A DNA stretch of 64,000 nucleotides from an uncultured virus (IMG/VR IMGVR_UViG_3300032167_000030) (taxonomy: Duplodnaviria > Heunggongvirae > Uroviricota > Caudoviricetes), in the IMG/VR virus record IMGVR_UViG_3300032167_000030; one strand, written 5' to 3'. A program made the position numbers and the translations under genes. Below the pieces are notes generated by a model, which ran no database searches, was not told where the DNA came from, and worked only from the letters and a program-made list of their open reading frames with translations. Each line of letters begins with the position of its first letter. The first letter of the stretch is position 1. This document shows, in pieces, positions 2,469 to 60,700 of the stretch.

Positions 2469-2604
2469 AAAATAAATCTGGGCCTCAATTTTGTTTGAGG
2501 AAATCTCTTTAATTGCTGGAAAATATTAAGAAAGTATAATCAGCAGCTATAAAAATGTAAAAAAGAAGGGACATTTATACTGATCCCTTAACAGTATATT
2601 AAAA

Positions 2605-3798
2605 TTAAAGTTTATAAATTTTTAATGAATTTGCTTTGGCTCTAATATTCTTAGTGGACTTATGTGTTTTAAGTAATTCAGGAATATCAGGACCTTGTGT
2701 AGGATATTTTTCCTTAAGGATAGCTACTTCCTCATCGGTCCACGAACAATGAATTTTTACCTTATCTAAATTCAGTACTATTGCTTTATCCCTAATACTA
2801 TTAATAGTACGAGCCTTAAGTAATTCAGGAATATTAGATCCTTGTGTAGGATATTTTTCCTTAAGGATAGCTACTTCCTCCTCTGTCCAAGGATTTACTT
2901 TATTAGTTACATTATATTCAGTAGCCTTAATCTGAATTGCCTGATTAGTATGTGTCTTAAGTAATTCAGGAATATTAGATCCTTGTGTAGGATATTTTTC
3001 CTTAAGGATAGCTACTTCCTCCTCTGTCCAAGGATTAATTAATCTATTAATTAAACACAGATAATTTGACTTAGTTACAATTGACTGTCTAGTATGTGTC
3101 TTAAGTAATTCAGGAATATTAGATCCTTGTGTAGGATATTTTTCCTTAAGGATAGCTACTTCCTCCTCTGTCCAAGGATTACCTTTTTCTTCACTTAAAT
3201 TTAATCTAACTGCTTTATGTCGAATAGATGTTTTAGTTCGTTTCTTAAGTAATTCAGGAATATCAGGACCTTGTGTAGGATATTTTTCCTTAAGGATAGC
3301 TACTTCCTCCTCTGTCCAAGGATTAAGTTTTGGATTAATTTTAACTGGTTCGATTTTCCGTATTTTTAGTATACTTGCTTTACTACGAATTTTATCAGCA
3401 GTTCGTTTCTTAAGTAATTCAGGAATATTAGATCCTTGTGTAGGATATTTTTCCTTAAGGATAGCTACTTCCTCCTCTGTCCAAGGATTTTTTTCACTAG
3501 TTAAACCGAATTCAAATGCAGCACTATTAATAGCCATTTTAGTACGAGTCTTAAGTAATTCAGGAATATTAGATCCTTGTGTGGGATATTTTTCCTTAAG
3601 GATAGCTACTTCCTCCTCAGTCCAAGAACTACCTTTAGGTAAATTAACTAAATTTAGTTTATGAGCTTCAGCTTTAATAGCACAATTAGTATGTGTCTTA
3701 AGTAATTCAGGAATATTAGATCCTTGTGTAGGATATTTTTCCTTAAGGATAGCTACTTCCTCCTCTGTCCATAAATTAAATTTTCGTCCTTTGTTCAT
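2605..3798 (-). CDS. Intron-borne antisense Myb/SANT-like tandem-repeat protein (8 repeats)
   Basis: 8 x WT(E/D)EEVAILKEKYPTQG(SN/PD)IPELLK, each followed by a variable helix. SD GAAAGG upstream. No nuclease motif seen. Confidence 0.8.
   Translation of the reverse strand: MNKGRKFNLWTEEEVAILKEKYPTQGSNIPELLKTHTNCAIKAEAHKLNLVNLPKGSSWTEEEVAILKEKYPTQGSNIPELLKTRTKMAINSAAFEFGLTSEKNPWTEEEVAILKEKYPTQGSNIPELLKKRTADKIRSKASILKIRKIEPVKINPKLNPWTEEEVAILKEKYPTQGPDIPELLKKRTKTSIRHKAVRLNLSEEKGNPWTEEEVAILKEKYPTQGSNIPELLKTHTRQSIVTKSNYLCLINRLINPWTEEEVAILKEKYPTQGSNIPELLKTHTNQAIQIKATEYNVTNKVNPWTEEEVAILKEKYPTQGSNIPELLKARTINSIRDKAIVLNLDKVKIHCSWTDEEVAILKEKYPTQGPDIPELLKTHKSTKNIRAKANSLKIYKL
2669..3771. repeat. Eight ~75-78 bp near-identical direct repeats separated by divergent spacers of roughly 63-88 bp (coding)
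   Basis: TTAAGTAATTCAGGAATATTAGATCCTTGTGTAGGATATTTTTCCTTAAGGATAGCTACTTCCTCCTCTGTCCA near 2669, 2815, 2956, 3100, 3244, 3408, 3550 and 3697. Confidence 0.95.
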
Positions 3799-4031
3799 AA
3801 AACTTTACAACCTTTCTAAATTATAATTAAAATATACTATAAATATAATATATAATTAAAATTTTACACTTTACATTTTTATAGTTCAACGACTAATTAG
3901 TACATTCTAACTCTAGAATGGAAATAAGAGAAGATTCATAATAGAATCTTGATATAGTCTCCTCTCTATTTTATAATAGAGCAGTTGTTAAGACAACGCT
4001 TGTAGTTTTAAGTTCTACAAGGAAGATATTG

Positions 4032-5795: not shown

Positions 5796-5816
5796 TATCT
5801 AGTCTCCTCTTTGTAA

Positions 5817-6263: not shown

Positions 6264-6297
6264 AAATAGTTCTCCCTTTTAGCTTTATTACACATTT

Positions 6298-23201: not shown

Positions 23202-24302
23202 TAAATAATAGTCGTCTATATTAGTGATAGTATAGAGAATTATTTCAAGAATTGCTGGAAAAATCTGTACAAGTATATTTAAAACTGGGTACTAGAAACA
23301 ACAATTTATTAAAAATAGTTTCTAGGGGGCAGTTTTATGATAAATAAAATTATTGATGGAATTATAGTAAAATTTGATTCCGATATAGTTTGTTCTGAAA
23401 ATCGAATTATAAAAGACATTAAAGCTATTAAAGATCATTTATTAGAAATAAATGAGTCCGATAGATATTTTGAATGTCTTTATAAATTAGAAGAAGATTC
23501 TAAATCAAAACATAATCGTCTTTTTATAAAAACTAATGATAAATGTGGACATGGTGATTATATAGTAAGATTTGATAAATTCAAAAAAGGATCAAGATGT
23601 CCAGAATTTGATTGTAAATTAAAACGTGTAAATAAAAGTAAAGAAATTAATAAAAGAAAAGAAATAATAGAATTTGTTAATAATAGTAATTATGATTTTT
23701 TTGATGATGATATAAATAAATCAATAATTCAAATGTCTGAAAAAGGATATAAACTACGTTTATTATGTCCTTATTGTAAACATCTTTATGAAACAATGTA
23801 TTACAATTTTAAAGCAGGATATGGATGTGGATGTAGACATGGTTCTAGAGCTGAAGAAAAGATTCAATCATTCTTAGAATCAAAAAATTTTAATTTTGTT
23901 TCAGAAAAGAAGTTTGACGATTTGGTTTATATCGAAAAATTAAGATTAGATTTTTATTTACCAGATTATAATATTGCAATTGAATTTGATGGTGAGCAAC
24001 ATAAAAAAGGATGGAATAAAGATCCTGAAAGTTTGAAAATCACCAAAATTAGAGATCAGATAAAAGACGAATATTGTAAAAATAATGGAATAACTCTTCT
24101 AAGATTTGATAGAAAAGATTATAAAAATCTAGAAGAAATACTTGACAGATCAATCAGCAGCCTTATAAAAGGTTCAAAGACTATGTAGTATATAAGTTGT
24201 ATACTCTGTATGAAACAACTATAAAGATAGTTGAAGATATAGTCTATTCTCATATGAAAATATGAGTTTAGAGTTTAACAAACTCTGAAATAATAAGCAA
24301 AG
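23202..24302 (+). mobile_element. Group I intron 3 (1101 nt) in portal gene, with homing endonuclease
   Basis: P 23250, Q 24152, R GTTCAAAGACTA 24172, S 24234, terminal G24302. Splicing gives FQD|YYIP. Confidence 0.9.
23337..24188 (+). CDS. Intron-encoded putative homing endonuclease (Zn-ribbon + DUF559/Vsr-like nuclease domain)
   Basis: CPYC-type Cys pairs; LRLDFYLPDYNIAIEFDGEQH...RDQIKDEYC...GITLLRF. Confidence 0.8.
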   Translation: MINKIIDGIIVKFDSDIVCSENRIIKDIKAIKDHLLEINESDRYFECLYKLEEDSKSKHNRLFIKTNDKCGHGDYIVRFDKFKKGSRCPEFDCKLKRVNKSKEINKRKEIIEFVNNSNYDFFDDDINKSIIQMSEKGYKLRLLCPYCKHLYETMYYNFKAGYGCGCRHGSRAEEKIQSFLESKNFNFVSEKKFDDLVYIEKLRLDFYLPDYNIAIEFDGEQHKKGWNKDPESLKITKIRDQIKDEYCKNNGITLLRFDRKDYKNLEEILDRSISSLIKGSKTM

Positions 24303-24350
24303 TATTACATTCCTGTAGTTGAAGGACAAAAACCTGTTGAAATAGACACT
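24303..24350 (+). CDS. Portal protein, exon 2 (48 nt)
   Basis: YYIPVVEGQKPVEIDT (cf. gp20-family DYWLPRR..GKGTEITTLPG). Confidence 0.85.
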
Positions 24351-24563
24351 TAAAGTTTAGGGTAGGTGTCTCTAAATTTTCTTAATTGCTGGAAAATGCT
24401 TAACGTACAATCAGCAGCCTTTTAAATAAGGTTCAACGACTATATAGTACGATGTAAATACATTGGATATAGAAAACATAGAAGATATAGTCTGATCTCT
24501 AGTTTAAAATCTAGAGCATAATTCAAAAGGTGCAAGCTTAATAGACTTGTATTAACAACTATG
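24351..24563 (+). mobile_element. Group I intron 4 (213 nt, no ORF) in portal gene
   Basis: IGS GGTGTC pairs with exon GACACT. P 24384, Q 24409, R 24431, S 24482, terminal G24563. Splicing gives EIDT|IPGM. Confidence 0.92.
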
Positions 24564-40285: not shown

Positions 40286-41839
40286 TTAACCTCCTAAATT
40301 TTTCATTCTGTATTTTATTAATCCACAATTCCAAACTCTTAAATAACCAGCTTCTTGCATCATTTGCTTTTCAGTTTTAGAATCATCATATATTTCTGGA
40401 AATAGTTTTTTAATCTTATCCTTTCTAAATCCAAATTTATGATGTAACACTAATTCATTTCTTTTATAGTATTTATAATCTGGTTTAGTATAACTTTCAA
40501 TATAGAAATTATTTTTCTCATACATATTTCCTATAGACCAAGTTCTATCAGCAAATGATATAATAGAATTAAATTCATAGTTTCTAGTAAAATATTTTAA
40601 TAGTTTACTAAATCCTCCTTCAATGATATAATTATTATCACTAGCATATCTAGAAAGGTTATATTCGATATCATTAGAATTGTTATTAGTTCTTAAAAAT
40701 GTCATAACTGCAATTAATTGATTCATTTCTTTTTGTTTTTTAGGTATATAATGTTTATAATAAAGACCTAGATTTATAGTAGTTGTTTTATCTGAACCTT
40801 GAATATGATTTTTATTAAGAAATTTATTCTTTAAATCATCATCAATTTCTTTTATGGTACATTTTCTAGCATATATTTTATACAAATCTGTACTTTCATG
40901 TAAAATATACTTTATTTTTGATTTGACAATTTCTTTTGAATTATACCAATCATTCTCAAATATATGTATTAAACGAATACCATTATTTTCACAATCTTTA
41001 GTTTTATTATAATGATACCATCTATCACATTTACCATTACTACCTTCTTCACTATGCCAATATAAACCATTATATTCTATTGCAAGTTTATCATCTGGTA
41101 GATAAAAATCTAACTCTTGACCCTTTAAAATAGTTCTATCATTAAGAATAATTGTTTTTTTATAAAAAGATTTTAAAAATTCATAAATTTCATCTTCTGC
41201 TTCAGATCTATCCTTTAAAATTTTACATTTAGGACATGGAACAGAATTCTTTTTCAAAGTTGTTTTAAAGTAATCTGGATTAATTGAAAAAATATGTTTA
41301 CAAGAATTATGTCTACATTTTAAATTCTTTCTTTTTCCTTTATATTTTTCCATGAATGTGTATTCACTACCAACTAAACTAAAAATTTCTTTTTTAAAAT
41401 CTTGATCTGATTTTAAGTTATTAGTACTATTTTTCTTACAAGTATCTATTATAATTTCTTTAGCACATTTAGGACATCTTTTTCCATTTTGAAAATTAGT
41501 ATAACTTACATTATATTCATGATTACAGATTTTATGTCTAATTTTAACTGGTGTATGAACATTTGTAATAGTTTTTTCTAGAAGCTCATATTCATTATTG
41601 GCTTCATTTTTGATTGTATCCTTGAAATCTTTTATTGTTATTTTTTGTTTACCATTACATTTAGGGCAAGATTTATACCGTTTAAAATCCTTTGGCCATC
41701 TTTCAAATTCATGTCCAACAGGACATCTGAATTTCATTGAAGTTTTATTATTTTTATATTCAGATAAAATTTCAAAACCTTGATTTAGCAATTCTTTGCA
41801 TTCTAATACATATTCATCATGTGTTTTAAGCATTATCAT
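40286..41839 (-). CDS. Free-standing Hef-like homing endonuclease with Zn-ribbon repeats
   Basis: Three C..(G/N)H...CPKC modules; ELDFYLPDDKLAIEYNGLYWH; YARKC.IKEI...FLNKNHIQG; WNCG C terminus. Confidence 0.75.
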   Translation of the reverse strand: MIMLKTHDEYVLECKELLNQGFEILSEYKNNKTSMKFRCPVGHEFERWPKDFKRYKSCPKCNGKQKITIKDFKDTIKNEANNEYELLEKTITNVHTPVKIRHKICNHEYNVSYTNFQNGKRCPKCAKEIIIDTCKKNSTNNLKSDQDFKKEIFSLVGSEYTFMEKYKGKRKNLKCRHNSCKHIFSINPDYFKTTLKKNSVPCPKCKILKDRSEAEDEIYEFLKSFYKKTIILNDRTILKGQELDFYLPDDKLAIEYNGLYWHSEEGSNGKCDRWYHYNKTKDCENNGIRLIHIFENDWYNSKEIVKSKIKYILHESTDLYKIYARKCTIKEIDDDLKNKFLNKNHIQGSDKTTTINLGLYYKHYIPKKQKEMNQLIAVMTFLRTNNNSNDIEYNLSRYASDNNYIIEGGFSKLLKYFTRNYEFNSIISFADRTWSIGNMYEKNNFYIESYTKPDYKYYKRNELVLHHKFGFRKDKIKKLFPEIYDDSKTEKQMMQEAGYLRVWNCGLIKYRMKNLGG

Positions 41840-42180: not shown

Positions 42181-42415
42181 CTTTTAGTTTTTATACATTC
42201 ATTAGATGTATTTAATCATTAATTTTCATTAATGAACAGACTATATCTTTAACCTAACTATTCTCGCTATCATTAGGTCATTTTGTACTAAATTATCATT
42301 TGATAATCATATAGTCGTTGAACCTTTTATAAAAGGATGCTGATTTACCTTATAGTATTTCCAGCAATTCTCAAAATAATTCTATATTGTTGCCAATATA
42401 GTGGCCTATTAATTA
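42181..42415 (-). mobile_element. Group I intron 5 (235 nt, no ORF) in major capsid gene
   Basis: Minus strand: IGS GGCC pairs with exon GGCT. P 42369-42358, Q 42345, R 42323, S 42249, terminal G at 42181. Confidence 0.9.
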
Positions 42416-43920
42416 AGCCTGTCGATACCAGGAACGAAGAACATAATAAATGCACCAGAAGGAACTAAGTCACTAGAGACCATTTCATACTTGTTAGCAC
42501 CACTAAAGGCACCGAGATTGAAAGAAACGTCAACACCAGACATCTGGTCAGAAGTATGATTGAAGACCCAGTCAACATTAGGAATGATCTGCATGTCAAT
42601 GGGGTTACCAATGATCATGAACTTACCACCATGGAACTTAGCATCAGTCTTCATCTTGATAGCAAAGTAGTCAATGACAGTCTTTAGTTCTTCACGCCAT
42701 GCTTTAGGAGTACCATTGAAGCCAGCAGAAGGAACCATGTTGAACTCACCTAGATACTGGATGTTGTTAACTTCGATAGACTTAGCTAGGAAGTTATAAA
42801 TCTCAATTTCTAGCTGCTGTGCAACAGTCTGAGACATTAGGTCAACAACTTCAGCTGCACCATCGATATTGTAGATAGCCATAGTGTCCTGTAGCCATTC
42901 GATGGGTAGAGGAGCATTTAGGTGGCTGCCAACACCGATAGTAACGTCCTTAGTTAGAACGTCGAAGCTGACGGACTGACCATAGTCATTAGCTTCCTGA
43001 GATAGACGAGCGTCAACCATAACAGCAGAGATTAGGCCGTTGGAGGACATTAGAGTCATCTTGCCTTCAGTGTAGTCAACTTTACCTAGTAGAGTATCAT
43101 AGACTTCGCCATAACGCTTGGTTAGACCAGTAACAGGATCGGTATACTGAACAGGAATAGCAACCTTAGCATAAACTAGAGCCTGTAGATCAGTCTTGAT
43201 ATGAACTCTTAGAGTGACTTCATCGATATCAGCAGGAACTTCAGGTAGAGAAGCAGCAGCCTTTAGGACAGCAGCCTTGTCAGTAACGACATGCTCAACA
43301 TAGAAGACCTTATCAATGGTGTCAGTACCCTTTAGACCAGCAACATCGAAGCCAACAGGCTGACCTTCATAATCAGCAGAGTCAATCTCGAATAGGCTGA
43401 AGTCAGTCATAGGTAGAACTAGACCTTCTGCAGGGTTACGGAAACGAGGTAGCTGAGCCTCAGTGTTACCTAGATAGTTGATAGCATCAGGTAGTTCTTT
43501 CTTATTACCATTAGCATCCATTAGATATGCCTTGGTGTAGGAAATAGCGAAACGAGGAGTAGCAACTACCTGAGTAGGAATAGCGTGCTTTAGAGCAACC
43601 TTTGCCCACATCTTACGAATGGTAGGCATAGATAAGCCAGCGATCTGCTGTACACCAGAGACAGAAGCTTCCTGTAGCATCTGAGTACGAGCATTATCCA
43701 TTAGCTGATTGAAGTTCTCAATCTGATCGGGTTCCATACCCTCTAATAGATGATCTTTATATTCGTTAAATAGAGTCTGTTCAGATAGAATCTCTTCCAT
43801 ACCCTGATGGGAGGTCATCTGAATGCCCTTATCTGCAAAGAATTCTGCAGCTTCACGTAGTACATCGGTAAAACCATCGTTCATTCTGGAACGAGCGGTC
43901 TGACGGTATTCAATAGACAT
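42416..43920 (-). CDS. Major capsid protein, exon 1 (spliced product 562 aa)
   Basis: Strongest codon bias in the window; located near the protease; T4 gp23-like C-terminal region (EWLQD...YNIDG..EVVDLMS..VAQQLEIEI). Confidence 0.8.
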
Positions 43921-44774: not shown

Positions 44775-45419
44775 TTAAAATGTATAATTTCTAGGTTTAT
44801 TCTTTTTCATTTTAGCTGTTTGTTCTTCGATATGAGAAAGTTTATAATTAAATTCTAAACGTTTTATATTCATATCTAATTCAGCTGACATTTTCTTTAA
44901 TAGAATTAGTTGCTCTTTTTGATCATTAGAAATCTTTTTCATTTTTTCTAATTGTTCAATCTTAGCAACAACAGCTTCTTTATCACCTTTTAGTTTTGTA
45001 TATAAATTTAGAATTTTTTCTCTTTCTATTTTTCCTAATGCTGGAACATTATTAACAGCAGCTTTAGTAAGTGCCATTAAAGGTATACCAATTGTTTTAC
45101 CAACAAATGGAAATTTTGTACATAATTTATAAAGGATATTACTATGATAACCAAATCCTTTAATTAAGTACTCTTCGTCTTTTATACTCTTTTGCATTCT
45201 CTTAAGTAAAGCAGTACTCTTATTTAAAAGATTCTTTTTCTTATTTAGAACTTCAGGATTAGAATTACTCTGATCTAAAGTTTTCTTATCTTTACTATCA
45301 TATAATGTCATTTCTTGTAATAGTCTCTTACTATCGTTTTCAATTTCTTGTAAGATTTCGTTAGAAAATTCCATATATAAATTAAACACTCCTTTCTTTA
45401 CTAGAATTAGAAAGTTCAT
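44775..45419 (-). CDS. Hypothetical virion protein (likely start 45374)
   Basis: ORF with SD and AACA-N6-TA at 45444-45455. Confidence 0.55.
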   Translation of the reverse strand: MNFLILVKKGVFNLYMEFSNEILQEIENDSKRLLQEMTLYDSKDKKTLDQSNSNPEVLNKKKNLLNKSTALLKRMQKSIKDEEYLIKGFGYHSNILYKLCTKFPFVGKTIGIPLMALTKAAVNNVPALGKIEREKILNLYTKLKGDKEAVVAKIEQLEKMKKISNDQKEQLILLKKMSAELDMNIKRLEFNYKLSHIEEQTAKMKKNKPRNYTF

Positions 45420-45558
45420 AGTTAAGTATTTTCTTATCTAATTTAATAAAATGTTGAAACTAATGATTTTTATAATAAAACTAGTATTTTTAGATAATAA
45501 AGATTCAACATTTCATTATATGATACCCTTATTTTAAAGAAAGGAGTTGTAATGTATT

Positions 45559-45792
45559 TTGAGAGATGAAAAAATTAAGGGATATATCATTTCTGAAGAT
45601 GCTATATCTACTACACCTAGAATTATTAGTGATAAATCTGGTCAACCTACTGTAATTGAAACTATATTACAAGAGGGTGATGTACAGAATCGTAATAAAC
45701 GTATTTATCCTACTGATACTATTAAGAAAGCTTTAACTTCTGAATATGTACAGGAAAGATTAAATACTAAGTCTTGGGTTGGAGAAGCAGGT
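45559..45792 (+). CDS. Prohead core protease (T4 gp21-like), exon 1
   Basis: LQEGDVQNRNKRIYP...WVGEAG. Spliced product is 264 aa. Confidence 0.88.
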
Positions 45793-46265
45793 AAAATAAG
45801 GATTGCCTAACCATAATGATAACATATGGTTTTAACTATTCTTAAATGCTGGAAACTATAAAGAATTTAGTTTATACAATCAGCAGCTTAGATAAAAACT
45901 AAAAAAAAAAGAAACCCCATTATAAGGATATAAATAACCTTTCTTTAGATTATCTAACTTTTGGGAAGTTAATGGGATTTTCTTTTTTTAGAGAATATTT
46001 CTTCTTTTGTATACTATGTTAAAAAGTTCTAAAGTATTATTTTTATTATAATACAGTTTTCTTTTGTATAGTACAAAGTGATTATATATAGCTATAATAG
46101 TACGCTTTACGTTTTATCTAAGTTCAACGACTATAAAAGAGTTTTAGTAAGCTCGTAATAGAAAAGTATTCTTATTTATAAGGATAGAGATATAGTCTAA
46201 TCTAGGTAGAAATACTTAGCTTTTTAATGAAGTTATAGAATTAACGATTCTATATAAAGAAAATG
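45793..46265 (+). mobile_element. Group I intron 6 (473 nt) in protease gene
   Basis: IGS GCCT pairs with exon AGGT. P 45844, Q 45878, R 46122, S ~46189, terminal G46265. Splicing restores GEAG|HP. Confidence 0.92.
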
Positions 46266-46521
46266 CATCCATTATCTCCAACTGTTGAAAGACAATTGTA
46301 TATTGATCAATCTAATTTATCTCACTTAATTACTGATGTATGGTGGGAAGGTAATTTACTAAAAGGTCGTGTCGAAACCTGTTTAACTGAAAGAGGTAAA
46401 GACATGCAAGGTTTAATCAGACAAGGAATGCAAGTAGCATTCTCAATGAGAGGATTTGGACCTGTTTCTGAAAAGAAAGGTGATATTACTTATATCAAAG
46501 ATCCTCTACACATTTTAACGT
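46266..46521 (+). CDS. Prohead protease, exon 2
   Basis: HP...SHLI...AFSMRGFG (cf. gp21 GVSSRG.G). Confidence 0.88.
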
Positions 46522-47945
46522 AGATTGTGCGATTATAACTAGTAATAGTTATACTAAATCTCTTTAATTGCTGGAACATACAAAAAATTGTATTATCAGC
46601 AGCTTAAAAACGTAAAAAAAAGATCCCATTATAAAATAATGGAATCTTTTTATAGAATTATTTAATAAGTTTTAGTCCTTCCTTAAAGGCTTTTCCGATA
46701 ATTGCATTTTTATTTCTAGTTTTAAGTAATTCAGGAATATTGGATCCATTAATTGGATAATACTTTTTAAGAAGATCTAATTCATAATCTGTCCAACTAT
46801 CTTCCAATTTAGATACTCGTTCAATTCTAGCTTTAGTTTTAATTGAACTTGTAGTTCTAGTTTTAAGTAATTCAGGAATATTGTATCCATTAATTGGATA
46901 ATACTTTTTAAGAAGATCTAATTCATAATCTGTCCAAGGATCATTATCTCGTTCACCTAATCCTAATCTAATTGCTTGATTAGTAATTGCCACTACAGTT
47001 CTAGTTTTAAGCAATTCAGGAATATTGGATCCATTAATTGGATAATACTTTTTAAGAAGATTTAATTCATCTACAGTCCAATGTTTTTTACTTTTTCTTT
47101 TTGGATTATTTGGACTAATTACAAATAACTTTTCCTTACGTGCCATGTCAATAATTGAATATGCAGTTCTAGTTTTAAGCAATTCAGGAATTTTGTATCC
47201 ATTAATTGGATAATACTTTTTAAGAAGATCTAATTCATAATCTGTCCAAGGATCATTACACTCTAATTTTAATAATCCTTCGATATTAGCTCTACTCCTA
47301 ATTGCATTTTCAGTTCTAGTTTTAAGCAATTTAGGAATATTAGATCCATTAATTGGATAATACTTTTTAAGAAGATCTAATTCATAATCTGTCCAAGAGT
47401 CTTCTGTTTTAGTTAATCCTTCGATATTAGCTCTACTCCTAATTGCATTTTCAGTTCTAGTTTTAAGTAATTCAGGAATATTAGATCCATATGTCGGATA
47501 ATATTTCTTAAGAAGATTTAATTCATATTCAGTCCAAGGTTCATTAAAATCGAGATTAACTAGATTCATTTTAAATGCTTTTGTTCTAATTGCTACTGCA
47601 GTTCTAGTTTTAAGTAGTTCAGGAATATTTACACCTTTAGTTGGATATTCTCGTCTAAGAATTTTTAATTCTTCTTGCGACCAATGTTTTTTAGATGTAG
47701 ACATAAAAACACTCCTTATGTTATGTAAAGATTAGTACACATTTATAATATATAAATAAAAATTTTTTAATTACGTTTTTAAGTTCAACGACTATTAGTA
47801 CATTCTAAATCTCTTAAGAATGGAAATAAGAGAAGTCTTTTATACCGCACATATAGAAGATTTTGATATAGTCTCACCTTTGTTTTATAACAAAGTAGTT
47901 GTTAAGACAACACTTATAGTTTAAAGATCTATAAGGAAGATACTG
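46522..47945 (+). mobile_element. Group I intron 7 (1424 nt) in protease gene
   Basis: P 46566, Q 46594, R 47783, S 47865, terminal G47945. Splicing gives ILT-Y-DWVLHPS. Confidence 0.92.
46658..47704 (-). CDS. Intron-borne antisense Myb/SANT-like tandem-repeat protein (7 repeats)
   Basis: 7 x WTDYELDLLKKYYPINGSNIPELLKTRT-like units, each with a variable helix; SD AAGGAG; paralog of 2605..3798. Confidence 0.8.
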   Translation of the reverse strand: MSTSKKHWSQEELKILRREYPTKGVNIPELLKTRTAVAIRTKAFKMNLVNLDFNEPWTEYELNLLKKYYPTYGSNIPELLKTRTENAIRSRANIEGLTKTEDSWTDYELDLLKKYYPINGSNIPKLLKTRTENAIRSRANIEGLLKLECNDPWTDYELDLLKKYYPINGYKIPELLKTRTAYSIIDMARKEKLFVISPNNPKRKSKKHWTVDELNLLKKYYPINGSNIPELLKTRTVVAITNQAIRLGLGERDNDPWTDYELDLLKKYYPINGYNIPELLKTRTTSSIKTKARIERVSKLEDSWTDYELDLLKKYYPINGSNIPELLKTRNKNAIIGKAFKEGLKLIK

Positions 47946-48250
47946 ACGATTGGGTATTACATCCCTCTCATAGACCTGCTTATATGCAGAAAGTTTTACA
48001 AGAAAATACTTCATTCATTCCTATGTCTGAGTCTTATTTTATTCCTTTAACTGAAGACTCTATTGTTAATTATCTAAATACTGAAAGTAAGAATATTAAA
48101 TCTTTAAAAGACCAGTATAATTTCCAAGATGCAATTGCATTAGGTAAGAAAGGTAACTTAGTTTACTTCCAAGAAGGTAATGATATTCTAGCTGCTTATT
48201 TAGAAGATTATATTAATATAGAATTAGACAGATATCTAGCTAATTTATAA
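47946..48250 (+). CDS. Prohead protease, exon 3
   Basis: DWVLHPSHRPAYMQKV... (cf. DxVxxPS). Confidence 0.85.
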
Positions 48251-48371
48251 AAATTGTATAGATTGTTAAGGTTTTATCTAGCTAATTTTTCGTTTCCTTC
48301 TTAAGAACATACTATTAAAGCAATACTTTACATTTTATAAATGTAAAAATATGAAAGAAAGGAGTACTTAA

Positions 48372-48656
48372 ATGGCTGGCATTCATAAGATAAAAGCTAA
48401 ACAAATTGACATTGCAAGTGTTGAAACTGAATTAAAAGATTCTTTTTTAAGTAAGTCAAGTGATGATCTAATTAGATTAGAAGAATCTATTGATGGAAAA
48501 GCACCAGTTGATAATCCAGTTTTTACTGGAACTGTTACTTTGCCACCTGTTAATTCTGAAACTGGTAAAGATAATTTAAAGGCTGCTACTGTTGGATTTG
48601 TTATCGAACAATTAGAGAATATTCTAATTGGTAATCTTGATGGCGGTGAAATTTAA
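48372..48656 (+). CDS. Small tail-fibre-associated protein
   Basis: KAPVDNPVFTGTVTLP...AATVGFV fibre repeat motif. Confidence 0.6.
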   Translation: MAGIHKIKAKQIDIASVETELKDSFLSKSSDDLIRLEESIDGKAPVDNPVFTGTVTLPPVNSETGKDNLKAATVGFVIEQLENILIGNLDGGEI

Positions 48657-48669
48657 GGAGTAGTGGATT

Positions 48670-49017
48670 ATGGCAAAAATAACAAGAATTCAATTTAAAC
48701 GTGGTCCTGCTTCAAAATGGAAAGAACTAAATATAGTTCTGCGATCTGGTGAACCTGGCTATGTTACAGACGAAAATCGATTTAAGATCGGTGATGGTGT
48801 AACACCTTGGAATCAACTAGGTTATGTTGGTGAAAATAATGTAATTAATGCTAAAACACATTATGATTTTCCATCTATAGGTAGTGCTAATACTATTTAT
48901 AAAGCAGAATCTGAACAAAAAATATATCAGTGGAATACAACCACTCTTAGATATGAAGCTTTAAATTATTCTAATGATTTAGACATAACATTAATCAATG
49001 GAGGTAATGCTGAATGA
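48670..49017 (+). CDS. Mtd_N/hyaluronidase-N-like fibre protein
   Basis: RIQFKRG....W......L..GE.G...D..RFKIGDG.TPW..L.Y. Confidence 0.7.
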   Translation: MAKITRIQFKRGPASKWKELNIVLRSGEPGYVTDENRFKIGDGVTPWNQLGYVGENNVINAKTHYDFPSIGSANTIYKAESEQKIYQWNTTTLRYEALNYSNDLDITLINGGNAE

Positions 49018-52315: not shown

Positions 52316-54589
52316 ATGGCTGATAAGATTCTAAATACTCGTATTGCCCTTAAATATGATAGTCTAAGTAACTGGAAAAGTAGTGCTGTAAAGCTCCGTC
52401 CCGGTGAAGTTGCCTTTGCTTACATTGATTCTGCTAATGGTGGTAGTCAGCTATATGGCGAGACTAATGCTGTAAAGCAGCCTACCGTACTATTCAAGGT
52501 TGGTGTTGGTACTCCTGGTGCTACCGATGATGGCACTTGGAAGTCTTTCAATGAGCTACCTTGGGCTTCTGCTCTAGCTGCTGACGTTTATGGTTGGGCA
52601 AAGAAGAGTGAAGAAGAGTTTAAGTCTTACTTAACTGAACTACTAAGTCAGGGTGCAATTGGTGACTATGCTACTACTGCTGCTCTAAGAGAGACCAACA
52701 CTAAGGTTGCTGCTAACGAAGAAGCTATTGCAAAGCTAAATGGTGCTGCTGATGCTGAAGGTTCTGTAGCTAAGATGATTGCTGACGCTCTAGCTGGTGC
52801 AAATCTAGATCAGTATGCTACCGATGAAGAGCTAAAGGCTGTTACCGACAAGATCAACCATGCTGAAACTGGCTTAGATACTAAGGCTTCTCAGGATGAT
52901 CTAGACGAACTAGCTACTGTTGTTGAAGGTCTAGTTGAGGGTGAAAACTCTGTTGATAGCAAGATTGAAGCTGCTTTCGAGGCTGCAAATCTAGATCAGT
53001 ATGCTACCGATACTGAGCTAAAGGCTGTTACCGACAAGATCAATGCTGCTGACACTGGCCTAGATTCCAAGGCTTCTCAGGACGACCTAGATGCTCTAGA
53101 GACCATTGTTGGTGACGAAAACGAAGGTCTAGTTAAGGATGTTGCTGACCTACAGGGTGCTGTCGCTACTAAGGCTGAGAGTTCCGTCGTTGAAGGTATC
53201 GGTGGTAGAGTCACTAATCTAGAGACTGCTGTCAATCATGCTGAAACTGGTCTAGCTACCAAAGCTTCTCAGGACGATCTAGACGAACTAGCTACTGTTG
53301 TCGGTGACGAAAACGAAGGTTTAGTTAAGGATGTTGCTGACCTACAGGGTGCTGTCGCTACTAAGGCTGAGAGTTCTGTTGTCGAGGGTATCGGTGGCAG
53401 AGTTACCACTCTAGAAAATGCTGTTAACCATGCTGAAACTGGTCTAGCTACTAAGGCTTCTCAGGATGATGTAGATGATCACGAGACTCGTATCGCTGAA
53501 TTAGAAGGTACTATCACTGGTCTAAGTGGTGCTATGCACTTTGTTGGTGTTGAAACTGCACTACCTGAAGGCGAAGCTCTAGCTGCTTATTCTGATGGTG
53601 ATGTAATCATTGTTGGTGAAAAGGAATATGTCTTCAACAGTGGTGCATTCGTTGAATTCGGTGACGTTTCTGCTGAAGGTGACCGTATTGCTGCTCTAGA
53701 AAGAGATATTGTTACTAAGGCTTCTCAGGACGATCTAGACGAACTATCCACTGTTGTTGGTGACGAGACTGATGGTCTAGTTAAGGATGTTGCTGACCTA
53801 CAGGGTGCCGTTGCTACTAAGGCTGAGAGTTCTGTTGTCGAGGGTATTGGCGGTAGAGTCACTAATCTAGAGACTGCTGTCAATCATGCTGAAACTGGTC
53901 TAGCTACTAAGGCTTCTCAGGACGACCTAGATGCTCTAGAGACTATCGTTGGTGACGAGACTGATGGTCTAGTTAAGGATGTTGCCGATCTACAGGGTGC
54001 TGTCGCTACTAAGGCTGAGAGTTCTGTCGTTGAAGGCATTTCTGGTAAAGTTACTGCTCTAGAGACTGCTGTTAACCATGCTGAAACTGGTCTAGCTACT
54101 AAGGCTTCTCAGGACGACCTAGACGAAGTAAAAACCAAGGTTGATGCTCTAGTTGAGGGCGACAATTCCGTTGATAGCAAGATCGAAGCTGCCTTCGAAG
54201 CTGCTAACTTAGATCAGTACGCTACCGATACTGAACTAAAGGCTGTCACTGACAAGATCAACCATGCTGAAACTGGCTTAGATACTAAGGCTTCTCAGGA
54301 TGATCTAGACGAACTAGCTACTGTTGTCGGTGACGAAAACGAAGGTCTAGTTAAGGATGTTGCTGACCTAAAGGCTAACAGTGCTACTTCCGCTGCTCTA
54401 AATGAAGTTTCTGGTAAGGTTACTGCTCTAGAGACTGCTGTCAACCATGCTGAAACTGGTCTAGCTACTAAGGCTTCTCAGGATGATCTAGACGAAGTAG
54501 AAACCAAGGTTGATGCTCTTGTTGAGAAATTCGGCGAAGCAGAAGACTTCCTAATCATGTACTGCGGTACTTCTACTGTAAATGTATAA
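52316..54589 (+). CDS. Repetitive coiled-coil fibre protein
   Basis: Repeated HAETGLATKASQDDLD and GLVKDVADLQGAVATKAE modules; strong codon bias. Confidence 0.7.
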   Translation: MADKILNTRIALKYDSLSNWKSSAVKLRPGEVAFAYIDSANGGSQLYGETNAVKQPTVLFKVGVGTPGATDDGTWKSFNELPWASALAADVYGWAKKSEEEFKSYLTELLSQGAIGDYATTAALRETNTKVAANEEAIAKLNGAADAEGSVAKMIADALAGANLDQYATDEELKAVTDKINHAETGLDTKASQDDLDELATVVEGLVEGENSVDSKIEAAFEAANLDQYATDTELKAVTDKINAADTGLDSKASQDDLDALETIVGDENEGLVKDVADLQGAVATKAESSVVEGIGGRVTNLETAVNHAETGLATKASQDDLDELATVVGDENEGLVKDVADLQGAVATKAESSVVEGIGGRVTTLENAVNHAETGLATKASQDDVDDHETRIAELEGTITGLSGAMHFVGVETALPEGEALAAYSDGDVIIVGEKEYVFNSGAFVEFGDVSAEGDRIAALERDIVTKASQDDLDELSTVVGDETDGLVKDVADLQGAVATKAESSVVEGIGGRVTNLETAVNHAETGLATKASQDDLDALETIVGDETDGLVKDVADLQGAVATKAESSVVEGISGKVTALETAVNHAETGLATKASQDDLDEVKTKVDALVEGDNSVDSKIEAAFEAANLDQYATDTELKAVTDKINHAETGLDTKASQDDLDELATVVGDENEGLVKDVADLKANSATSAALNEVSGKVTALETAVNHAETGLATKASQDDLDEVETKVDALVEKFGEAEDFLIMYCGTSTVNV

Positions 54590-54706
54590 TTATCTATAAA
54601 AGTATAGATTTAAGTTAAAATATAATAAGATTTACCACATCATTAAGGTGATGTGGTAAATCTTAATTAAAAGTATTCTAAATAGAAAGGAGTGTTGATA
54701 GAAATT

Positions 54707-57700
54707 ATGTCTATAGTTAAACATCGAAGAGGTTCTACCGAAAGATGGAATGAAGTCGATCCAATTATTGAACGTGGCGAGATAGTTGTAGAATATTGTG
54801 AAGATGGAAGTACTAAACTTAAAGTTGGTAATGATGAAAAGTTTAGTAATACACCTTATATACAAGGATCTGATAATGTATCTGGTGGTGGAAGTAGTAA
54901 TGTATCTAACGAACAGATTGAAGCTATAAATGAAAAAATTGATACTATTGATGAAAGTATTACTGATCTTACTAGTAGAGTAGAAACACTAGAAAATAGT
55001 GAAGATAGTTCAGTTGATCTTACTGATATTACTAGTAGAGTAGAAACACTTGAAGCTCTTGATATCAACACTAAACTAGAAACAGTTAATACTAATGTTT
55101 CAGATCTTACTAGTAGAGTAGAAACACTAGAAAATAGTGAAGATGAAAATGTTAATGTTGACTTAAGTCCTATTACTAATGAACTCGCTGATATTACTGC
55201 TAGATTAGAGATACTAGAAAATAGTGGAGACATTGGTAATGTTGATTTAAGTTCTATTACTAAGGAATTAACTAATCTTAGTACTAGAGTAGAAACACTT
55301 GAAAATAGTGGAGTTAATGTTGACTTAAGTTCCATTACTAATGAACTCGCTGATATTACTGCTAGATTAGAGATACTAGAAAATAGTGAAGTGGATATCG
55401 ATCTAACTCCTATTACTGAAGAACTAACTAGTCTTACCAATAGAGTAGAAACATTAGAAAATAGTGAAGTAGATATCGATCTAACTCCTATTACTAATGA
55501 ACTCGCTGACATTACTGCTAGAGTAGAAACATTAGAAAATAGTGAAGTAGATATCGATCTAACTCCTATTACTAATGAACTAACTAGTCTTAATACTAAT
55601 ATTGCTGACCTTACTACTAGAGTGGAAACACTAGAGAATAGTGAAGGTGAAAATGGTAGTTTAGAAAATATTACTAATGAAATTGCAAGTATTAATACGG
55701 ATATTGCCGATCTTACTGCTAGAGTAGAAACAAATGAAACTGGTATTGCAGTTGCTAACTCTAGAATGGATACTTTTGTTGCATTAAAAGATGGTTCAAC
55801 CACAGGTGATGCAGAATTAGCTGACATTAGAGTTAGTTATGATGGTACTACTTATGAAACTGCAGGCGAAGCAGTTAGATCTCTTGGTAACGAATTAAGT
55901 TATCTTAAAAACAATCTACAAGATTTTATAGACGCAGATGCTGTTGATGGTTTATACTATAATGAAGGAACCAATCAGTTATATCTAACTTCAAAAGGTG
56001 AACCTGTAGGAAATTCTGTTACAATTGTCGGTGGCGGCGGTGGTGGTGTAGAAGGTTATAGTTTACGTATAGTAAACAAAATGTCTTCAAACATTCTTAC
56101 TGTTGCTCAATCAAAACAGAATTTAATCAGTATTGAATTCTATGAAAAATGGGGTAATGTATCCACTGGTAAATCTGGTACTGTTGAGATTTCTTATAAA
56201 TTAAGTACTGATAGTGAATGGATTCCCTTTAGAAGAGTTATAAACGTTCTACAAGGCACTCCATTCTCAATAGACGTAGCTGGTATTCTTGTTAAAGATA
56301 CTCCTGTTGACATTCAGTTTACCGTTATCGGTGGTGAATCTGGCGAGGAATATAAGCGTTCATTAACTTTCCAAATTACACAGGTTGAGGCTGGTATCTC
56401 AGCAGATAGAAACTTTAATCCTTATGCTAGATATACTGGTAACTTTGAATTTAAATATCTATGTATAGGTCTTAACTTAAATAAGACAGTTTATTTTGAG
56501 ATTGATGACGAAATATGCTATGAGATTAATATCGGCACTAGTCATAATACCCTAATTCCTCAGATTATTGAGATGCTTGGAAAATATGAATATGGTGTAC
56601 ATGATCTAAAAGTATATTTCAAAACTGAAGACGGTGCAATGTCCAATGTTCTACAGTATGCTATTCTGTATGATGATGGAAATGGTACTGCACCTATGAT
56701 TGGTGTAAACTGTAAACAAACCGAATACAATTATGGTGATATAATAAGCCTAGATTATGTAGTATATACACCCAATCAAGAAACTACTGATGAGTTATCT
56801 ATTCGTGTATATAGTAAAGATGATCAAGATAATGAGATTGTTTATGATACAACTGAACTTGTTGGTATTATTAACAACAAACAGCAATCATGGAATGGTA
56901 CTTCTTATCCCTCATCTGGTACTGTATATATCGAATTTAAGAGTAAAGAAACTATTAGAACTGTTGAATTAACAATCAACGAGATTCAAAGTAAATACGA
57001 CTTAAAATCTGTTTCTACAGGCTTAATTTATAGCTATAGTGCAAATGGTCGTAGTAATAATGACGTAAATAAAGATGTATATAAGTATGCTTATACAACT
57101 TCTAATGGTGTTAAAACACAAATAGAAGGACAATTTACTGGTTTTAACTGGGTTTCTAATGGTTATATTGATAATGAGTCTCTAACTTTAAGTGGTGACT
57201 CTCGTCATACTATTGAACTACCTATGTTCTCTACTAACTATATAGATAAAGAGGGACAAATTGTCAATCTTGAAAATATAGCTGATGCTACAGTTACAAC
57301 TAGTGGTAGAACTTTTGAAATCGAATTTAAGGTTACTAATGTAACTGATATAAATGCTCGTATTATTGAATGTATGTCAAATGATCATGCTGGTTTTGTA
57401 ATTACTCCTCAGTCTTGTTACTTACTATCAGCTAATGGTCAAAATGTAAAACTTGATAGTACTGGTTTCATTGAAAATGAAGAAAGTATTGCAGCTGCAT
57501 ATATCAAGGATAATACTCGTATAAGAGTAAGCTTTGTTATCCAACCTTTAAAATCTATAAGTTATACAAATGATAATGGTGAACTAATTACTGGTCAGTG
57601 TATAAATATCTTTATCAATGGCGAATTTGCAAAGTCCTTTATTTATCCTGATAATGCAAGATTTGTAAGTGATAAGTACATTAAGATGGGTAGTAATACT

Positions 57701-60700
57701 TGTATCTTAAATGTATATGATATACGTATTTATAATCGTGGTCTTAATAAGGATGAAATTCTTCAGAACTATAAAGCTTCTCCTGTTGTTGTACAGGATA
57801 AGATTAGTAGATTTGAAGATAATGACATATTAACCGATAATACTTCTGATATAGATATTGATTACTACAAAGCAATTAATAAGTATCCTTGTTTACTAAT
57901 TACTGGTGATCTATCTCCTTATAAAGATGATGATAGAAATACTGGTGGTACAAGATATAGTGGTTCTATTCTTACTAAGCCTGATGGTAATGGTAGTTAT
58001 ACTACTGAGTTCTCATTAATGGATAGAGATTCTAATGGAAGATATTTATGTTATAATAAAGTACAGGGTACTTCTTCAGTTAAATTCCCCATTAAGAACT
58101 TTAAGTTCTATCTAAGATTTGATAAAAATGGTGAATCTTCAAAATTCAAGTATGCTCTTAAGGGTCTTGATGAAGAAGGTAATGCACTTTCTATTCCTGA
58201 ATCCACATTATGTTGGAAAGCTGACTTCATGTCCTCAGACCATGCTAATACATTTAACGCAAACTTAGCTGATACTCTATTTACTGATATTACACCTTCT
58301 CAGTTAGAAGATCCTCGTGTACAGAATACCATTTATGGATTCCGTTGTCTATTATTTAGACGAAATCATGAAAATGGTGACATCTACTTTGTTGGTGATG
58401 GTGCATTAAACAACGATAAGAGTAACTCTAAGACTTTCGGTCTAGAATGTGATGGAGATAGTGGTAATAATACTACTCGTCAGAAATGGGAATTCCTAAA
58501 CAACACTGAAGCTCTATGTTCTTTCCAAACTGACCGTTTCTATGAAATGGTTAAAACTGAAGAAGGCTCACAAGTTAAACGTGTAACACTTGGTTTAGAG
58601 TCAATGTATCCTGATCAGGGTGACCTTGAAGATGAAGGATTAGAACCTAATTATGATTATCTACAATTACTCTTTACTTGGGTATATCAGAGAGCTAATT
58701 TCTGGGATGCTTCAACTGATACATTAGATGTTCCTTATACTTATCAAGGTGTTGAGTATTATAGTGAATATGATTATCGTAAAGCAATTTTCGTAAGAGA
58801 ATTTGAAAGACACTTTAATCTAAATCATACATTAGTTTACTATCTATTCATGGAATTCATTGCATTATGTGATAACCGTGCAAAGAACCTATTCATTAAA
58901 TGCGAAGATGTTCACGCAGAACAATTAATTGATATACATGGTAACGAAATTTCTATTAATGACGTTATCAACATGGATACTGGTGAAGTTAATGCTAATA
59001 TGATAGATTGGGAGAATTCTTCCTTTGCTATTTGGTATCCTTCTCTATATGACCTTGACTCTGGTTATGGTGTTGAAAACTCTGGTTATCTTCAGATTCC
59101 TTATTATGCTGACTGGAGCTATCAGCTAAATGGTACTCAGAAGTTCAATGGTTATGAATCAAGACTATGGTTAATGTTTGAAGATGCATTTGCAAATAAG
59201 ATTCAAGCTACTGCACAAGAATTAACTGAGAAAAAAGTTGAAGAAGGTGCTTTAAGCTATGAAGCTCTATATAAAGTGCATATTGAAGGTAATGCTAAGC
59301 TTGTATGTCCTGCAGTAGTCAACCAAGATATGACTTATAAGTACGAAGATCCTTGGGTTGAAGGTTTCGTAGACTATTCATCTGAAGGTAACCCTGTACG
59401 TCATATTTCTGACTATAAGTACTTACAACGTGGTAGCCGTACTGAACAGAAAGACGCTTTCATTTATAGACGTTCTAACATGTTATACAGTAAGTATAAG
59501 TGTAAGAAATTCTTAAACAACAACATTAACTTCCGTTGTGGTACTAATGGCGGTGTATCTGCTATCAATAGTGGTATTTCTATAACTGCTAACCAGACTT
59601 TATATCCTGCTGTAAAATTTGGTGATGGTGATGCTGCTGTTATTTCTGGTGCAAAAACTGATGCTGGTAATGTATGTGTAGTTACAAAGCCAGGTTCAAC
59701 ATCTAGTGATAAGGTCGGTTTCTCTGATACTATCTATATTGCTGGTGGTACATTCCTTACCGATATTGGTGATATTTCAAAGTTTAGACCTTATGAATTA
59801 CAGTTACAAAATGCAACTGGTATAAGACATTTAACAATTGGTTCAGACGAAGAAGGTTATGAAAACGTTCAGTTAAAGAAAATTGACACTTCTAGTTGTA
59901 GACTACTTGAAGAATTAAATGTTATGGGTTGTACTGCATTAGGTAACTTAGATCTATCCAAGAATGGTATCTTAAAGAGACTATATGCATCTAAGTCTAG
60001 TGTTCAGTCTGTAATACTAGCTAATGGTGGTGTAGTTGAAGAACTATATCTTGGTGATATCGTTGACCTTGAAATCTTAAACCAAGCAAATCTTAAGATA
60101 TTCGAATGTACAAGTTATGATTCACTAAATAGACTACACATTGAAAATACTCCTAATATCCCTGTATTTGATATTCTTAAAAACTATATGTCTCAATTAA
60201 CTGGTGGTATCAGAATTGTTGGTCTACATGAAAGTTTAGAAGATGATTCTTTCGTAAGATTACTACTAAGTGATGATGCTAAGGGTAAGTATATTGATGC
60301 AAGTGGAACTCATATAGACGATGCAAATCGTTATCCTTTAATCTCTGGTTCTGTACATGTACCTACTATTAGAGGTACTATGTTAAAGAAGATGAACAAG
60401 GTATATCCTGAATTAACCGTTACTTATGATACATTAGTAGCTGACATCACATATATGAATGATGAAGGAACTACAGTCTTACATCAGTACACTATTTATA
60501 ATGGTGAAAATGCTACTGACATTATTAAGGATGGTATGTATGCAAAGCCTACAAAAGACAGTACTGCTCAGTATGATTTCACATATGGTGGTTGGTCTAG
60601 AATAGCAAATGGTGATCCTGATCCTAATGCTTTAAAGAAGATTGATGAGGATATTACTGTTTACATTGCATTCCATAAAGCTATAAAGAGCTACGATATA

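Follow-up and report, generated by a model that had tools for sequence, protein, structure and literature searches.

The closest described counterparts of the system reported here are modular add-on units of homing endonucleases—NUMOD and IENR, the HNH-AP2 protein encoded by g190 of phage AR9, and the arrays of CapR, DUF4379 and DUF723 units found on EDxHD and Vsr nucleases (PMC12350094). In these systems, a small unit occurs in variable copy number and is combined with several nuclease families, and the genes lie either in phage introns or free between genes. The 64,000-nucleotide (nt) stretch of DNA analyzed here (hereafter, the window) comes from an uncultured virus (IMG/VR record IMGVR_UViG_3300032167_000030) and contains an open reading frame (ORF), ORF A, that encodes seven tandem Myb-like units and lies antisense in a group I intron (intron 7); a paralog of eight units, ORF B, occupies intron 1. 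The Myb-like module resembles the add-on systems in all of these respects. Unlike them, however, ORF A has no nuclease, its array is longer (7–8 units), and no NUMOD sequence match was obtained. The article on CapR, DUF4379 and DUF723 arrays deals with another module and mentions Myb zero times (PMC12350094), and a full-text literature search found no paper linking Myb-like units to homing endonucleases or introns. As a targeting module of homing endonucleases and restriction-type motors, the Myb-like unit family is apparently both very large and undescribed. We tentatively interpret ORF A as an early binder of a long DNA site that may derive from homing-endonuclease targeting modules and would act for its intron—in other words, as a candidate new modular targeting unit of homing endonucleases, here nuclease-free in the intron's endonuclease slot.

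Other known proteins share parts of this design. c-Myb R1R2R3 (PDB 1h88), SNAPC4 and the Reb1/Rtf1 fork-barrier and terminator proteins (PDB 5eyb) are built from the same three-helix unit and are the top structural matches, with a recognition helix that reads RTDNAIKNHWN in c-Myb and RTENAIRSRAN in ORF A. ORF A differs from the c-Myb type in its phage origin, its 7–8 units, its homogenised scaffold, a second helix of only four residues and structural E-values of 0.006 or worse. TALE repeats and C2H2 zinc-finger arrays likewise combine a near-identical scaffold, which in ORF A and ORF B is homogenised at the DNA level, with a few hypervariable DNA-facing positions; this is an analogy between unrelated proteins with a different fold. 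The N-terminal domain of GcrA (PF07750) and the RsfA-like Myb-type phage factors, presented in PMC7824862, belong to the same bacterial and phage branch of Myb-like helix-turn-helix (HTH) domains; GcrA has a single such domain, joined to a part that binds sigma-70, and ORF A consists of its seven units alone.

Two phage introns offer functional parallels. The T4 nrdB intron carries a defunct I-TevIII and is mobilised in trans by mobE (PMC2790892), and the intron endonuclease gp210 of PhiPA3 is described as being used in competition against PhiKZ (PMC11620839). Both cases resemble ours in involving a phage group I intron in an essential gene and, respectively, an inheritance bias by a nuclease encoded elsewhere (T4) or action on a co-infecting relative (PhiPA3); unlike their proteins, which are or were nucleases, ORF A is a binding array only, antisense and behind an early-type promoter motif. 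The target of gp210 is reportedly an RNA polymerase gene of PhiKZ, and the gene that hosts its intron is reportedly likewise an RNA polymerase gene of a jumbo phage.

ORF A lies antisense between core elements Q and R of intron 7, in the following arrangement:

46522..47945, plus strand: intron 7, group I, recognised by core motifs and exon continuity; T is the last letter of the 5' exon and G that of the intron
46569-46576, plus strand: P, TGCTGGAA, core element of intron 7
46595-46603, plus strand: Q, ATCAGCAGC, core element of intron 7
46607..46651, minus strand: terminator-like hairpin of 16 pairs followed by a T run, directly behind the ORF A stop
46658..47704, minus strand: ORF A, 348 amino acids, seven tandem Myb-like units and no other domain
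Residues 8-56, 57-103, 104-152, 153-208, 209-256, 257-303 and 304-348 of ORF A: units 1-7
47712..47717, minus strand: putative ribosome-binding site (RBS) AAGGAG, 7 nt before the ORF A ATG
47744..47755, minus strand: 12-mer TTATATATTATA, 40 nt upstream of the ORF A ATG
47783-47793, plus strand: R, GTTCAACGACT, core element of intron 7
47865-47873, plus strand: S, GATATAGTC, core element of intron 7

The protein opens with a seven-residue head, followed by seven units of 46–56 amino acids, all with nearly the same scaffold of 28 residues and with a third helix that is hypervariable; at the DNA level, Tandem Repeats Finder reports periods of 141–147 bp over 46714–47629. The seven repeats, their scaffold and the helix-3 strings given in the initial annotation of this DNA—AVAIRTKAFKM, ENAIRSRANIE, AYSIIDMARKE, VVAITNQAIRL, TSSIKTKARIE and KNAIIGKAFKE—were recovered as described, including the double occurrence of ENAIRSRANIE. 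The Myb-like nature proposed there was also borne out, the Pfam profile Myb_DNA-binding (PF00249) matching six stretches of ORF A with an E-value of 4e-25 and 88.1 bits against a cut-off of 24.4. The protein is basic, with an isoelectric point of 9.55. An AlphaFold2 model based on an alignment of 32 arrays had a mean predicted local distance difference test score of 87.5 and a predicted template modeling score of 0.45—the single units are thus modelled with confidence and their mutual arrangement is not. The predicted helices of a unit are 14, 4 and 10 residues long, and three helices were counted in six of the seven modelled units; helix 2 was left uncalled in units 2 and 3, with unit 3 counted for a short HHH. 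Foldseek ranked c-Myb R1R2R3 bound to DNA first (probability 1.00, E 0.006), and SNAPc and Reb1-Ter were further leading matches; none of the three reached E 0.001. In a phmmer search against solved structures, units 1–3 fell in register with c-Myb R1–R3 (E 0.005), the alignment setting ...TRTENAIRSRAN of ORF A against GRTDNAIKNHWN of c-Myb. It pairs unit positions 33, 34, 37 and 38 with K182, N183, N186 and S187 of c-Myb R3, which we take to be base contacts.

Among the three signature tryptophans of canonical Myb, only the first is kept, W1 being invariant and the second and third positions being occupied by Y13 and A36; the unit is therefore Myb-like (SANT/GcrA-like) and not canonical Myb. 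The GcrA profile PF07750 reaches 24.3 bits on ORF A, under its 26.9-bit cut-off, with unit 7 covering profile positions 2–43, and the NCBIfam GcrA model scores 14.4 bits against a cut-off of 280. ORF A also matches PHROG 323, a 'transcriptional regulator' family, with an E-value of 3.6e-16. No NUMOD family (NUMOD1-4) was present among the Pfam matches of ORF A, scans of ORF A and ORF B with NCBIfam and PADLOC returned nothing meaningful, and the isolated-phage collection contained no match to the region (megablast) or to the protein (tblastn).

To place the variation among units in context, the paralog in the virion RNA polymerase beta gene has to be considered alongside ORF A:

2469..4031, plus strand: intron 1, group I, in the virion RNA polymerase beta gene (homolog of AR9 g189), inserted between HADPP and RIGMQ
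2605..3798, minus strand: ORF B, paralog of ORF A, 397 amino acids, eight units, antisense in intron 1
3844..3855, minus strand: second copy of the 12-mer TTATATATTATA, 46 nt upstream of the ORF B ATG

Neither a protein search nor a six-frame profile scan of the 319,626-bp genome turned up a Myb unit outside these two ORFs. The initial annotation had claimed that repeats resemble each other more within a gene than between the two genes, which holds for the scaffold (codons 1–28) and fails for helix 3 (codons 29–41). Scaffold nucleotide identity is 0.92 within ORF A (units 2–7), 0.94 within ORF B and 0.71 between the two, and the corresponding synonymous differences per synonymous site (pS) are 0.18, 0.12 and 0.53; helix 3, in turn, shows an identity of 0.46–0.62 within a gene versus 0.48 between genes, with a ratio of nonsynonymous to synonymous differences (pN/pS) of about 1. 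Between ORF A and ORF B, the scaffold pN/pS is 0.43 at a pS of 0.53 and both ORFs are intact, a pattern that indicates purifying selection on the scaffolds of both paralogs. Conversely, pN/pS at codons 29, 30, 33, 34, 37 and 38 amounts to 1.17 in ORF A and 1.75 in ORF B, against 0.49 and 0.38 for the respective scaffolds, although the six-codon values are rough because pN is near saturation.

The same six positions stand out across the family. In a survey of the 111 proteins with at least five units, and with ORF A and ORF B excluded from the position identities, within-protein identity was lowest at positions 29, 30, 33, 34, 37 and 38 (0.11–0.16) and high at positions 32, 36 and 39 (0.67–0.86); the six variable positions share one face of helix 3. 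By scaffold identity, ORF B ranks first among the 111 proteins (0.91) and ORF A third (0.79), the median being 0.46. The helix-3 DNA of ORF A is the same in units 2 and 3, a sign of recent unit duplication. Moreover, the closest stand-alone relative (P0002, encoded on a 1487-base contig of another phage) has a B-type scaffold with 0.76 identity and unrelated helices, which reach 0.28 in register; scaffold types are therefore kept across phages while helices are exchanged. The concerted evolution within each gene proposed in the initial annotation thus survives in part: the scaffold is homogenised per gene at the DNA level and helix 3 is not, and the B-type scaffold of the foreign relative implies that scaffold likeness is partly conservation of type and not concerted evolution alone.

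The distribution of the module was examined by a phmmer search of 1.84 billion cluster representatives, which yielded 1900 proteins at E <= 0.001 and 108 at E <= 1e-30, with 1 to 13 units per protein; many of these relatives exceed the GcrA cut-off. A domain scan covered 83 of the best 150 representatives, among which 32 carried an N-terminal superfamily 2 helicase (ResIII/Helicase_C/DEAD), two an HNH domain and one each LAGLIDADG_3, DUF723 and DUF4379. The helicase parts have the look of restriction-type motors, with PADLOC matches to PbeA and type IV at E-values of about 1e-21. Precomputed Pfam assignments for 63 near-length homologs listed LAGLIDADG_2 in six, LAGLIDADG_3, DUF723 and DUF4379 in one each, and a helicase in eight, and in the LAGLIDADG fusions two to three Myb-like units flank the nuclease on each side. 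Together with the loci described below, the module is joined, in variable number, to three types of homing-endonuclease nuclease (LAGLIDADG_2/_3, HNH and Vsr-like) and to the homing-endonuclease-associated repeat. The roles of guiding a trans-acting nuclease or repressing competitors, floated in the initial annotation, would thereby become indirectly more plausible. On the strength of the domain, the one-sided hypervariability of helix 3 and these fusions, ORF A is very probably a sequence-specific DNA binder with a long site.

We also retrieved 19 loci with relatives from viral and metagenome contigs—a small sample that is biased by the search patterns—and inspected the genes of 18 of them (all except L009). 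Helicase fusions were present at four of them (L007, L011, L014 and L015), a free-standing Myb-HNH gene at L008, Myb units with LAGLIDADG_3 at L012 and L142, with L013 grouped here from its ORF, P0011, and two ORFs with a 'homing endonuclease associated repeat' at L010; no recognised enzyme was seen at L016 or L143. Seven loci (L144–L150) encode about ten longer Myb-like units followed by a C-terminal domain which, in L144, the only one checked, aligns to the DUF559/Vsr-like part of an intron endonuclease of the present phage (BLASTP E 3e-5). One metagenome scan returned six loci and no stand-alone array in an intron, and searches for related loci with the whole of ORF A, ORF B or P0002 retrieved the same phage only, or nothing. 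As a separate observation, the Myb-array genes in L016 and L144–L150 adjoin tRNA gene clusters—recalling the free-standing homing endonucleases in T4-type tRNA regions—and skipping-rope RNA also occurs in L144 and L147.

Intron 7 interrupts a gene that is predicted, from profile and AR9 matches, to encode the head-maturation protease:

45559..45792, plus strand: protease exon 1, Peptidase_S77 profile positions 44-88
45793..46265, plus strand: compact group I intron of the protease gene, lacking an ORF
46266..46521, plus strand: protease exon 2, Peptidase_S77 profile positions 97-163
47946..48250, plus strand: protease exon 3, whose match to the AR9 head maturation protease (E 2e-10) adjoins that of exon 2

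The AR9 matches of exon 2 (88826–89080) and exon 3 (88517–88822) are contiguous, and the single codon between them is the Tyr that intron 7 splits. We take the motif series TGCTGGAA/ATCAGCAGC/GTTCAACGACT/GATATAGTC to be the classical P, Q, R and S elements, and these motifs align to the Rfam RF00028 consensus in a compact sibling intron at 24341–24515. Rfam itself misses the ORF-bearing introns, with none found at the gathering score over the whole window and chance matches only at the E-value threshold over 45000–49000; intron 7 is therefore defined by its core motifs, its sibling introns and exon continuity.

Alleles lacking the introns exist as well. In one public DNA run (X1), a 409-base contig joins position 46519 to 47960 with 16 other letters between—exactly the outcome predicted by removing 46522–47945—and in a second contig 32 letters connect 45791 to 46297, so that the compact intron 45793–46265 is gone. 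Both contigs code for the same amino acids across the junctions (TYDWVL and GHPLSPTVERQL), and their flanking exon parts differ from the window at 12/132 and 43/258 letters; a related phage with intron-less alleles was therefore present in the same sample. Both Myb-intron sites are also uninterrupted in AR9. The public DNA runs containing the phage are listed as faeces metagenomes. Two further signals in X1 were set aside: an apparent excess of synonymous divergence at the junctions (6/16 and 12/32 letters) is biased, being calculated on letters that the aligner could not place, and joints from 46580 to 47460 with sides of 22–25 letters probably come from sibling introns. Separately, a 4522-base X1 contig skips 141 bases, equal to one unit (47272 to 47414, units A2/A3, with 54 letters fitting either side), which may be a six-unit variant or an assembly collapse of duplicated units; this joint was not used.

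Both ORF A and ORF B have an RBS, and the hairpin behind ORF A is the one found in the region against 0.4 expected. The 12-mer TTATATATTATA has only two matches in the window, both before the Myb ORFs (0.22 expected), and closely resembles AAATATATATTAT-(6N)-G, the consensus of the AR9 early promoters that the injected virion polymerase reads. Across the genome, TATATATTAT is not over-represented (14 matches versus 11.8 expected), and an RBS-led ORF of at least 50 codons follows within 130 nt in 12/14 cases versus 185/2000 random positions. Four of the 14 matches lie inside introns in antisense orientation, ahead of ORF A, ORF B, the first ORF of a cassette in intron 2 (motif at about 6307) and a 105-amino-acid ORF. 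By analogy with AR9, ORF A and ORF B are probably transcribed early and antisense, each from its own AR9-type promoter.

The two host introns are related to each other. As the initial annotation had noted, introns 1 and 7 are most alike in their 3' halves, which are mutual best matches at 80% identity, versus best-partner values of 53–68% for the other 14 introns. They further share the stretch from the ORF stop to Q, the 21 bases before P and an extra hairpin, GTTGTTAAGACAAC, a similar form of which occupies the same place in two AR9 g189 introns. The 5' halves, in turn, are mosaic: that of intron 7 is nearest intron 2 (72%), its identity with intron 1 being just 61%, and the stem after P equals that of intron 2. 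The common 3' half, the 12-mer and the Q-side sequence thus argue for one origin of ORF and intron in this genome, followed by exchange among sibling introns—the proposal that intron and repeat gene spread as a unit holds to that extent, and the mosaic 5' halves limit it.

Building on the observed anatomy, family membership, fusions, signals and intron-less alleles, we infer DNA binding, early expression, a target and an inheritance effect for ORF A. According to our tentative model, for which we would claim somewhat less than an even chance, ORF A and ORF B would each be a nuclease-free, sequence-specific DNA-binding protein of seven (eight) three-helix units, and since the helix-3 face differs from unit to unit, the whole array would read one long unique DNA site. 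The array occupies the Q–R loop, the usual place of homing-endonuclease genes; in other introns of this genome, Vsr-like or LAGLIDADG genes stand between core elements. In co-infecting relatives, it would bind its own insertion site where the intron is missing and thereby bias inheritance toward the intron-carrying allele. This could happen through recruitment of a nuclease encoded elsewhere, or the array could be a tight roadblock to transcription or replication on an essential gene of the competitor. The endonuclease slot, the different helices in two essential genes, the selection on the scaffold and the circulating intron-less alleles all point to such a pro-intron role. A bolder version, which we consider unlikely, is that the array alone acts as a drive: it would clamp the intron-less protease or virion RNA polymerase allele of co-infecting relatives early, blocking the gene or stalling replication forks such that recombination copies the intron in, and the intron would then split the binding site. 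This would amount to homing, or to interference competition, that needs no dedicated endonuclease. In that version, the arrays would constitute a natural re-programmable DNA-reading system akin to TALE repeats, with a fixed scaffold and six variable positions spelling a long target.

To our knowledge, intron-encoded proteins are nucleases or maturases; if our model is true, introns could bias inheritance or fight rivals by binding alone or with a partner acting in trans. The array would also represent a new kind of modular DNA-binding protein, and its six variable positions, set in an invariant scaffold, make a recognition code worth looking for. AP2 is a transcription-factor domain of eukaryotes. 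Should the model hold, the Myb-like arrays would parallel the AP2 part of the HNH homing endonuclease encoded by AR9 g190, with a bearing on the origin of Myb/SANT domains.

Several results weigh against a role of ORF A in intron mobility. Homing as known requires a DNA break, and ORF A has no nuclease domain in the Pfam, PHROG or NCBIfam scans, in which LAGLIDADG, HNH, GIY-YIG, His-Cys, PD-(D/E)xK and EDxHD types were sought, and its units already cover residues 8–345 of 348; no partner nuclease was identified either. The co-occurrence of the repeat family with group I cores, which the initial annotation proposed to score as a check, did not materialise, with cores detected at 0/19 homolog loci (nhmmer profiles, and Rfam at gathering score), although neither method is sure to detect a distant or ORF-split intron there. 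In the reverse survey, a Myb unit was found in 0/120 other viral loci with the same R...S motif, with 2.5-kb flanks taken for 80 of them. The link between intron and array is thus specific to this phage and does not extend to the family, so that at the level of the family the outcome named in the initial annotation as refuting its proposal was obtained. Moreover, 46/83 representatives have only Myb-like, GcrA-like or incidental matches, or none, and carry neither nuclease nor helicase, so they may be plain regulators. Behind two of the four intronic promoter-like motifs lies functionally uncharacterised cargo (the intron 2 cassette and the 105-amino-acid ORF), and an intron location may therefore just mean a safe place for early genes. 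The homogenised scaffolds, for their part, could stem from recent unit duplication.

These points bear most directly on the possibility that ORF A is an ordinary early regulator—a phage transcription or host-takeover factor—carried as intron cargo that is harmless to the late host gene and unrelated to mobility, an explanation that we regard as somewhat unlikely yet the most serious competitor. It draws on the antisense cassette of intron 2 and the 105-amino-acid ORF behind the same promoter-like motif, on the match to PHROG 323 (E 3.6e-16) and the weak GcrA matches, on the 46/83 representatives without nuclease or helicase domain, and on the remark of Iyer et al. 2021 (PMC7824862) that certain jumbo phages have expanded sets of Myb-type HTH transcription factors. 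However, both copies in the genome are intronic and none lies elsewhere, and 7–8 differing recognition helices imply one long unique site, a feature seldom seen in regulators but usual in homing enzymes; the module has, in addition, been fused repeatedly to the nucleases of homing endonucleases. A second alternative, in which the array guards a site of its own genome or of a co-infecting one against the endonuclease of another element, or blocks the invasion of a neighboring position, fits the crowding of the host genes with introns (16 group I cores in the genome), the AR9 intron only 33 nt from the intron 1 site and the several endonuclease genes in other introns. Even so, the intron already destroys its own target site and makes a guard needless there, and we consider this alternative improbable.

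The missing nuclease could instead mark ORF A as a functionless, decaying remnant of a homing-endonuclease gene, and the long basic mid-array linkers (unit A4 with 56 amino acids and unit B3 with 55) could be read as the scar of a lost central domain, by comparison with the Myb-LAGLIDADG-Myb fusions. Against such decay stand two intact paralogs with a scaffold pN/pS of 0.43 at a pS of 0.53, the RBS and promoter-like motif kept in both, the terminator-like hairpin kept by ORF A, and the 7–8 units, versus four to five split around the nuclease in LAGLIDADG fusions—altogether making a remnant slightly more improbable than a site guard. Some intron-encoded proteins are maturases, and the shared 3' half of the two host introns would suit a protein that binds intron RNA and aids splicing. 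The fold, however, is of the DNA-binding Myb type, the gene is antisense with a promoter-like motif of its own, 14 sibling introns do without the ORF, and a hypervariable helix would be unexpected for the recognition of a conserved RNA core; the maturase role suggested in the initial annotation found no support and is highly improbable.

With respect to the genomic setting, the window belongs to a 319,626-base virus record rated complete. Among isolated phages, the Bacillus jumbo phages AR9 and PBS1 are nearest to it, with identities of 59% over protease exon 2 and 62% over an RNA polymerase beta exon. At least 16 group I intron cores were counted across the genome, and the following features accompany introns 1 and 7:

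About 4285-6455, plus strand: intron 2, RNA polymerase beta gene, with P at 4322 and S at 6395
5817-6263, 5439-5795, 4824-5405, 4596-4802 and 4425-4562, minus strand: ORFs of the intron 2 cassette
24341-24515, plus strand: compact sibling intron, RF00028 at 45.2 bits
42217-42425, minus strand: compact sibling intron, RF00028 at 57.1 bits (gathering score 50)
23337-24188 of the window, plus strand, and 4251-5219 (minus), 140505-141389 (plus) and 184736-185509 (plus) of the genome: sense-oriented endonuclease genes in other introns
2518-3075 of the genome, outside the window, minus-strand intron: fourth intron with an antisense ORF, 105 amino acids, membrane-protein-like
4579-4964 and 4059-4359 of AR9 (KU878088.1; locus L137): g189 intron region beside the intron 1 site

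Exon 1 of the RNA polymerase beta gene matches the PHROG 14872 profile up to position 1003, and the match in exon 2 starts at 1005. AR9 g189 is joined from six pieces, with the HNH-AP2 endonuclease gene g190 in one of its introns. The AR9 sequence is uninterrupted at the HADPP-R junction and has an intron 33 nt downstream and another, compact and ORF-less, at the site of intron 2 of the window; the AR9 intron and intron 1 thus fall in the same conserved HADPPR.GMQ..QQ.KH stretch at neighboring but different insertion sites. The intron 2 cassette comprises four to five antisense ORFs, and the four that were checked had no Pfam or PHROG match. Three of the sense-oriented endonuclease genes encode zinc-ribbon proteins with a C-terminal part like DUF559/Vsr, and one is LAGLIDADG-like by its motifs; the window copy (23337–24188), the only one run through Pfam and PHROG, matches PHROG homing-endonuclease families. 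GIY-YIG was not found in the genome, and one ORF that contains two HNH motifs and is located some 3.4 kb beyond the window presented no case as a partner of ORF A. The compact intron at 42217–42425 was missed in the whole-window Rfam scan and found in a 331-base stretch, owing to the speed filters applied to a long, AT-rich window.

Finally, some minor observations were made elsewhere in the window. A 517-amino-acid ORF with a DUF4379 treble-clef zinc finger (40286–41839, minus strand) adjoins the Gp23-like major capsid gene (42409–43920), at the end of which the compact intron 42217–42425 is located, and this ORF may be an endonuclease beside or inside the capsid gene. An Mtd_N domain (the N-terminal domain of major tropism determinants) starts two plus-strand ORFs, 8802–9500 and 48670–49017, the latter just downstream of the protease gene. 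In-frame tandem repeats at 53047–54127 and 55151–55732, with periods of 192 bp and 156/78 bp and 85–86% matches, lie inside the large plus-strand ORFs 52316–54589 and 54692–61579.

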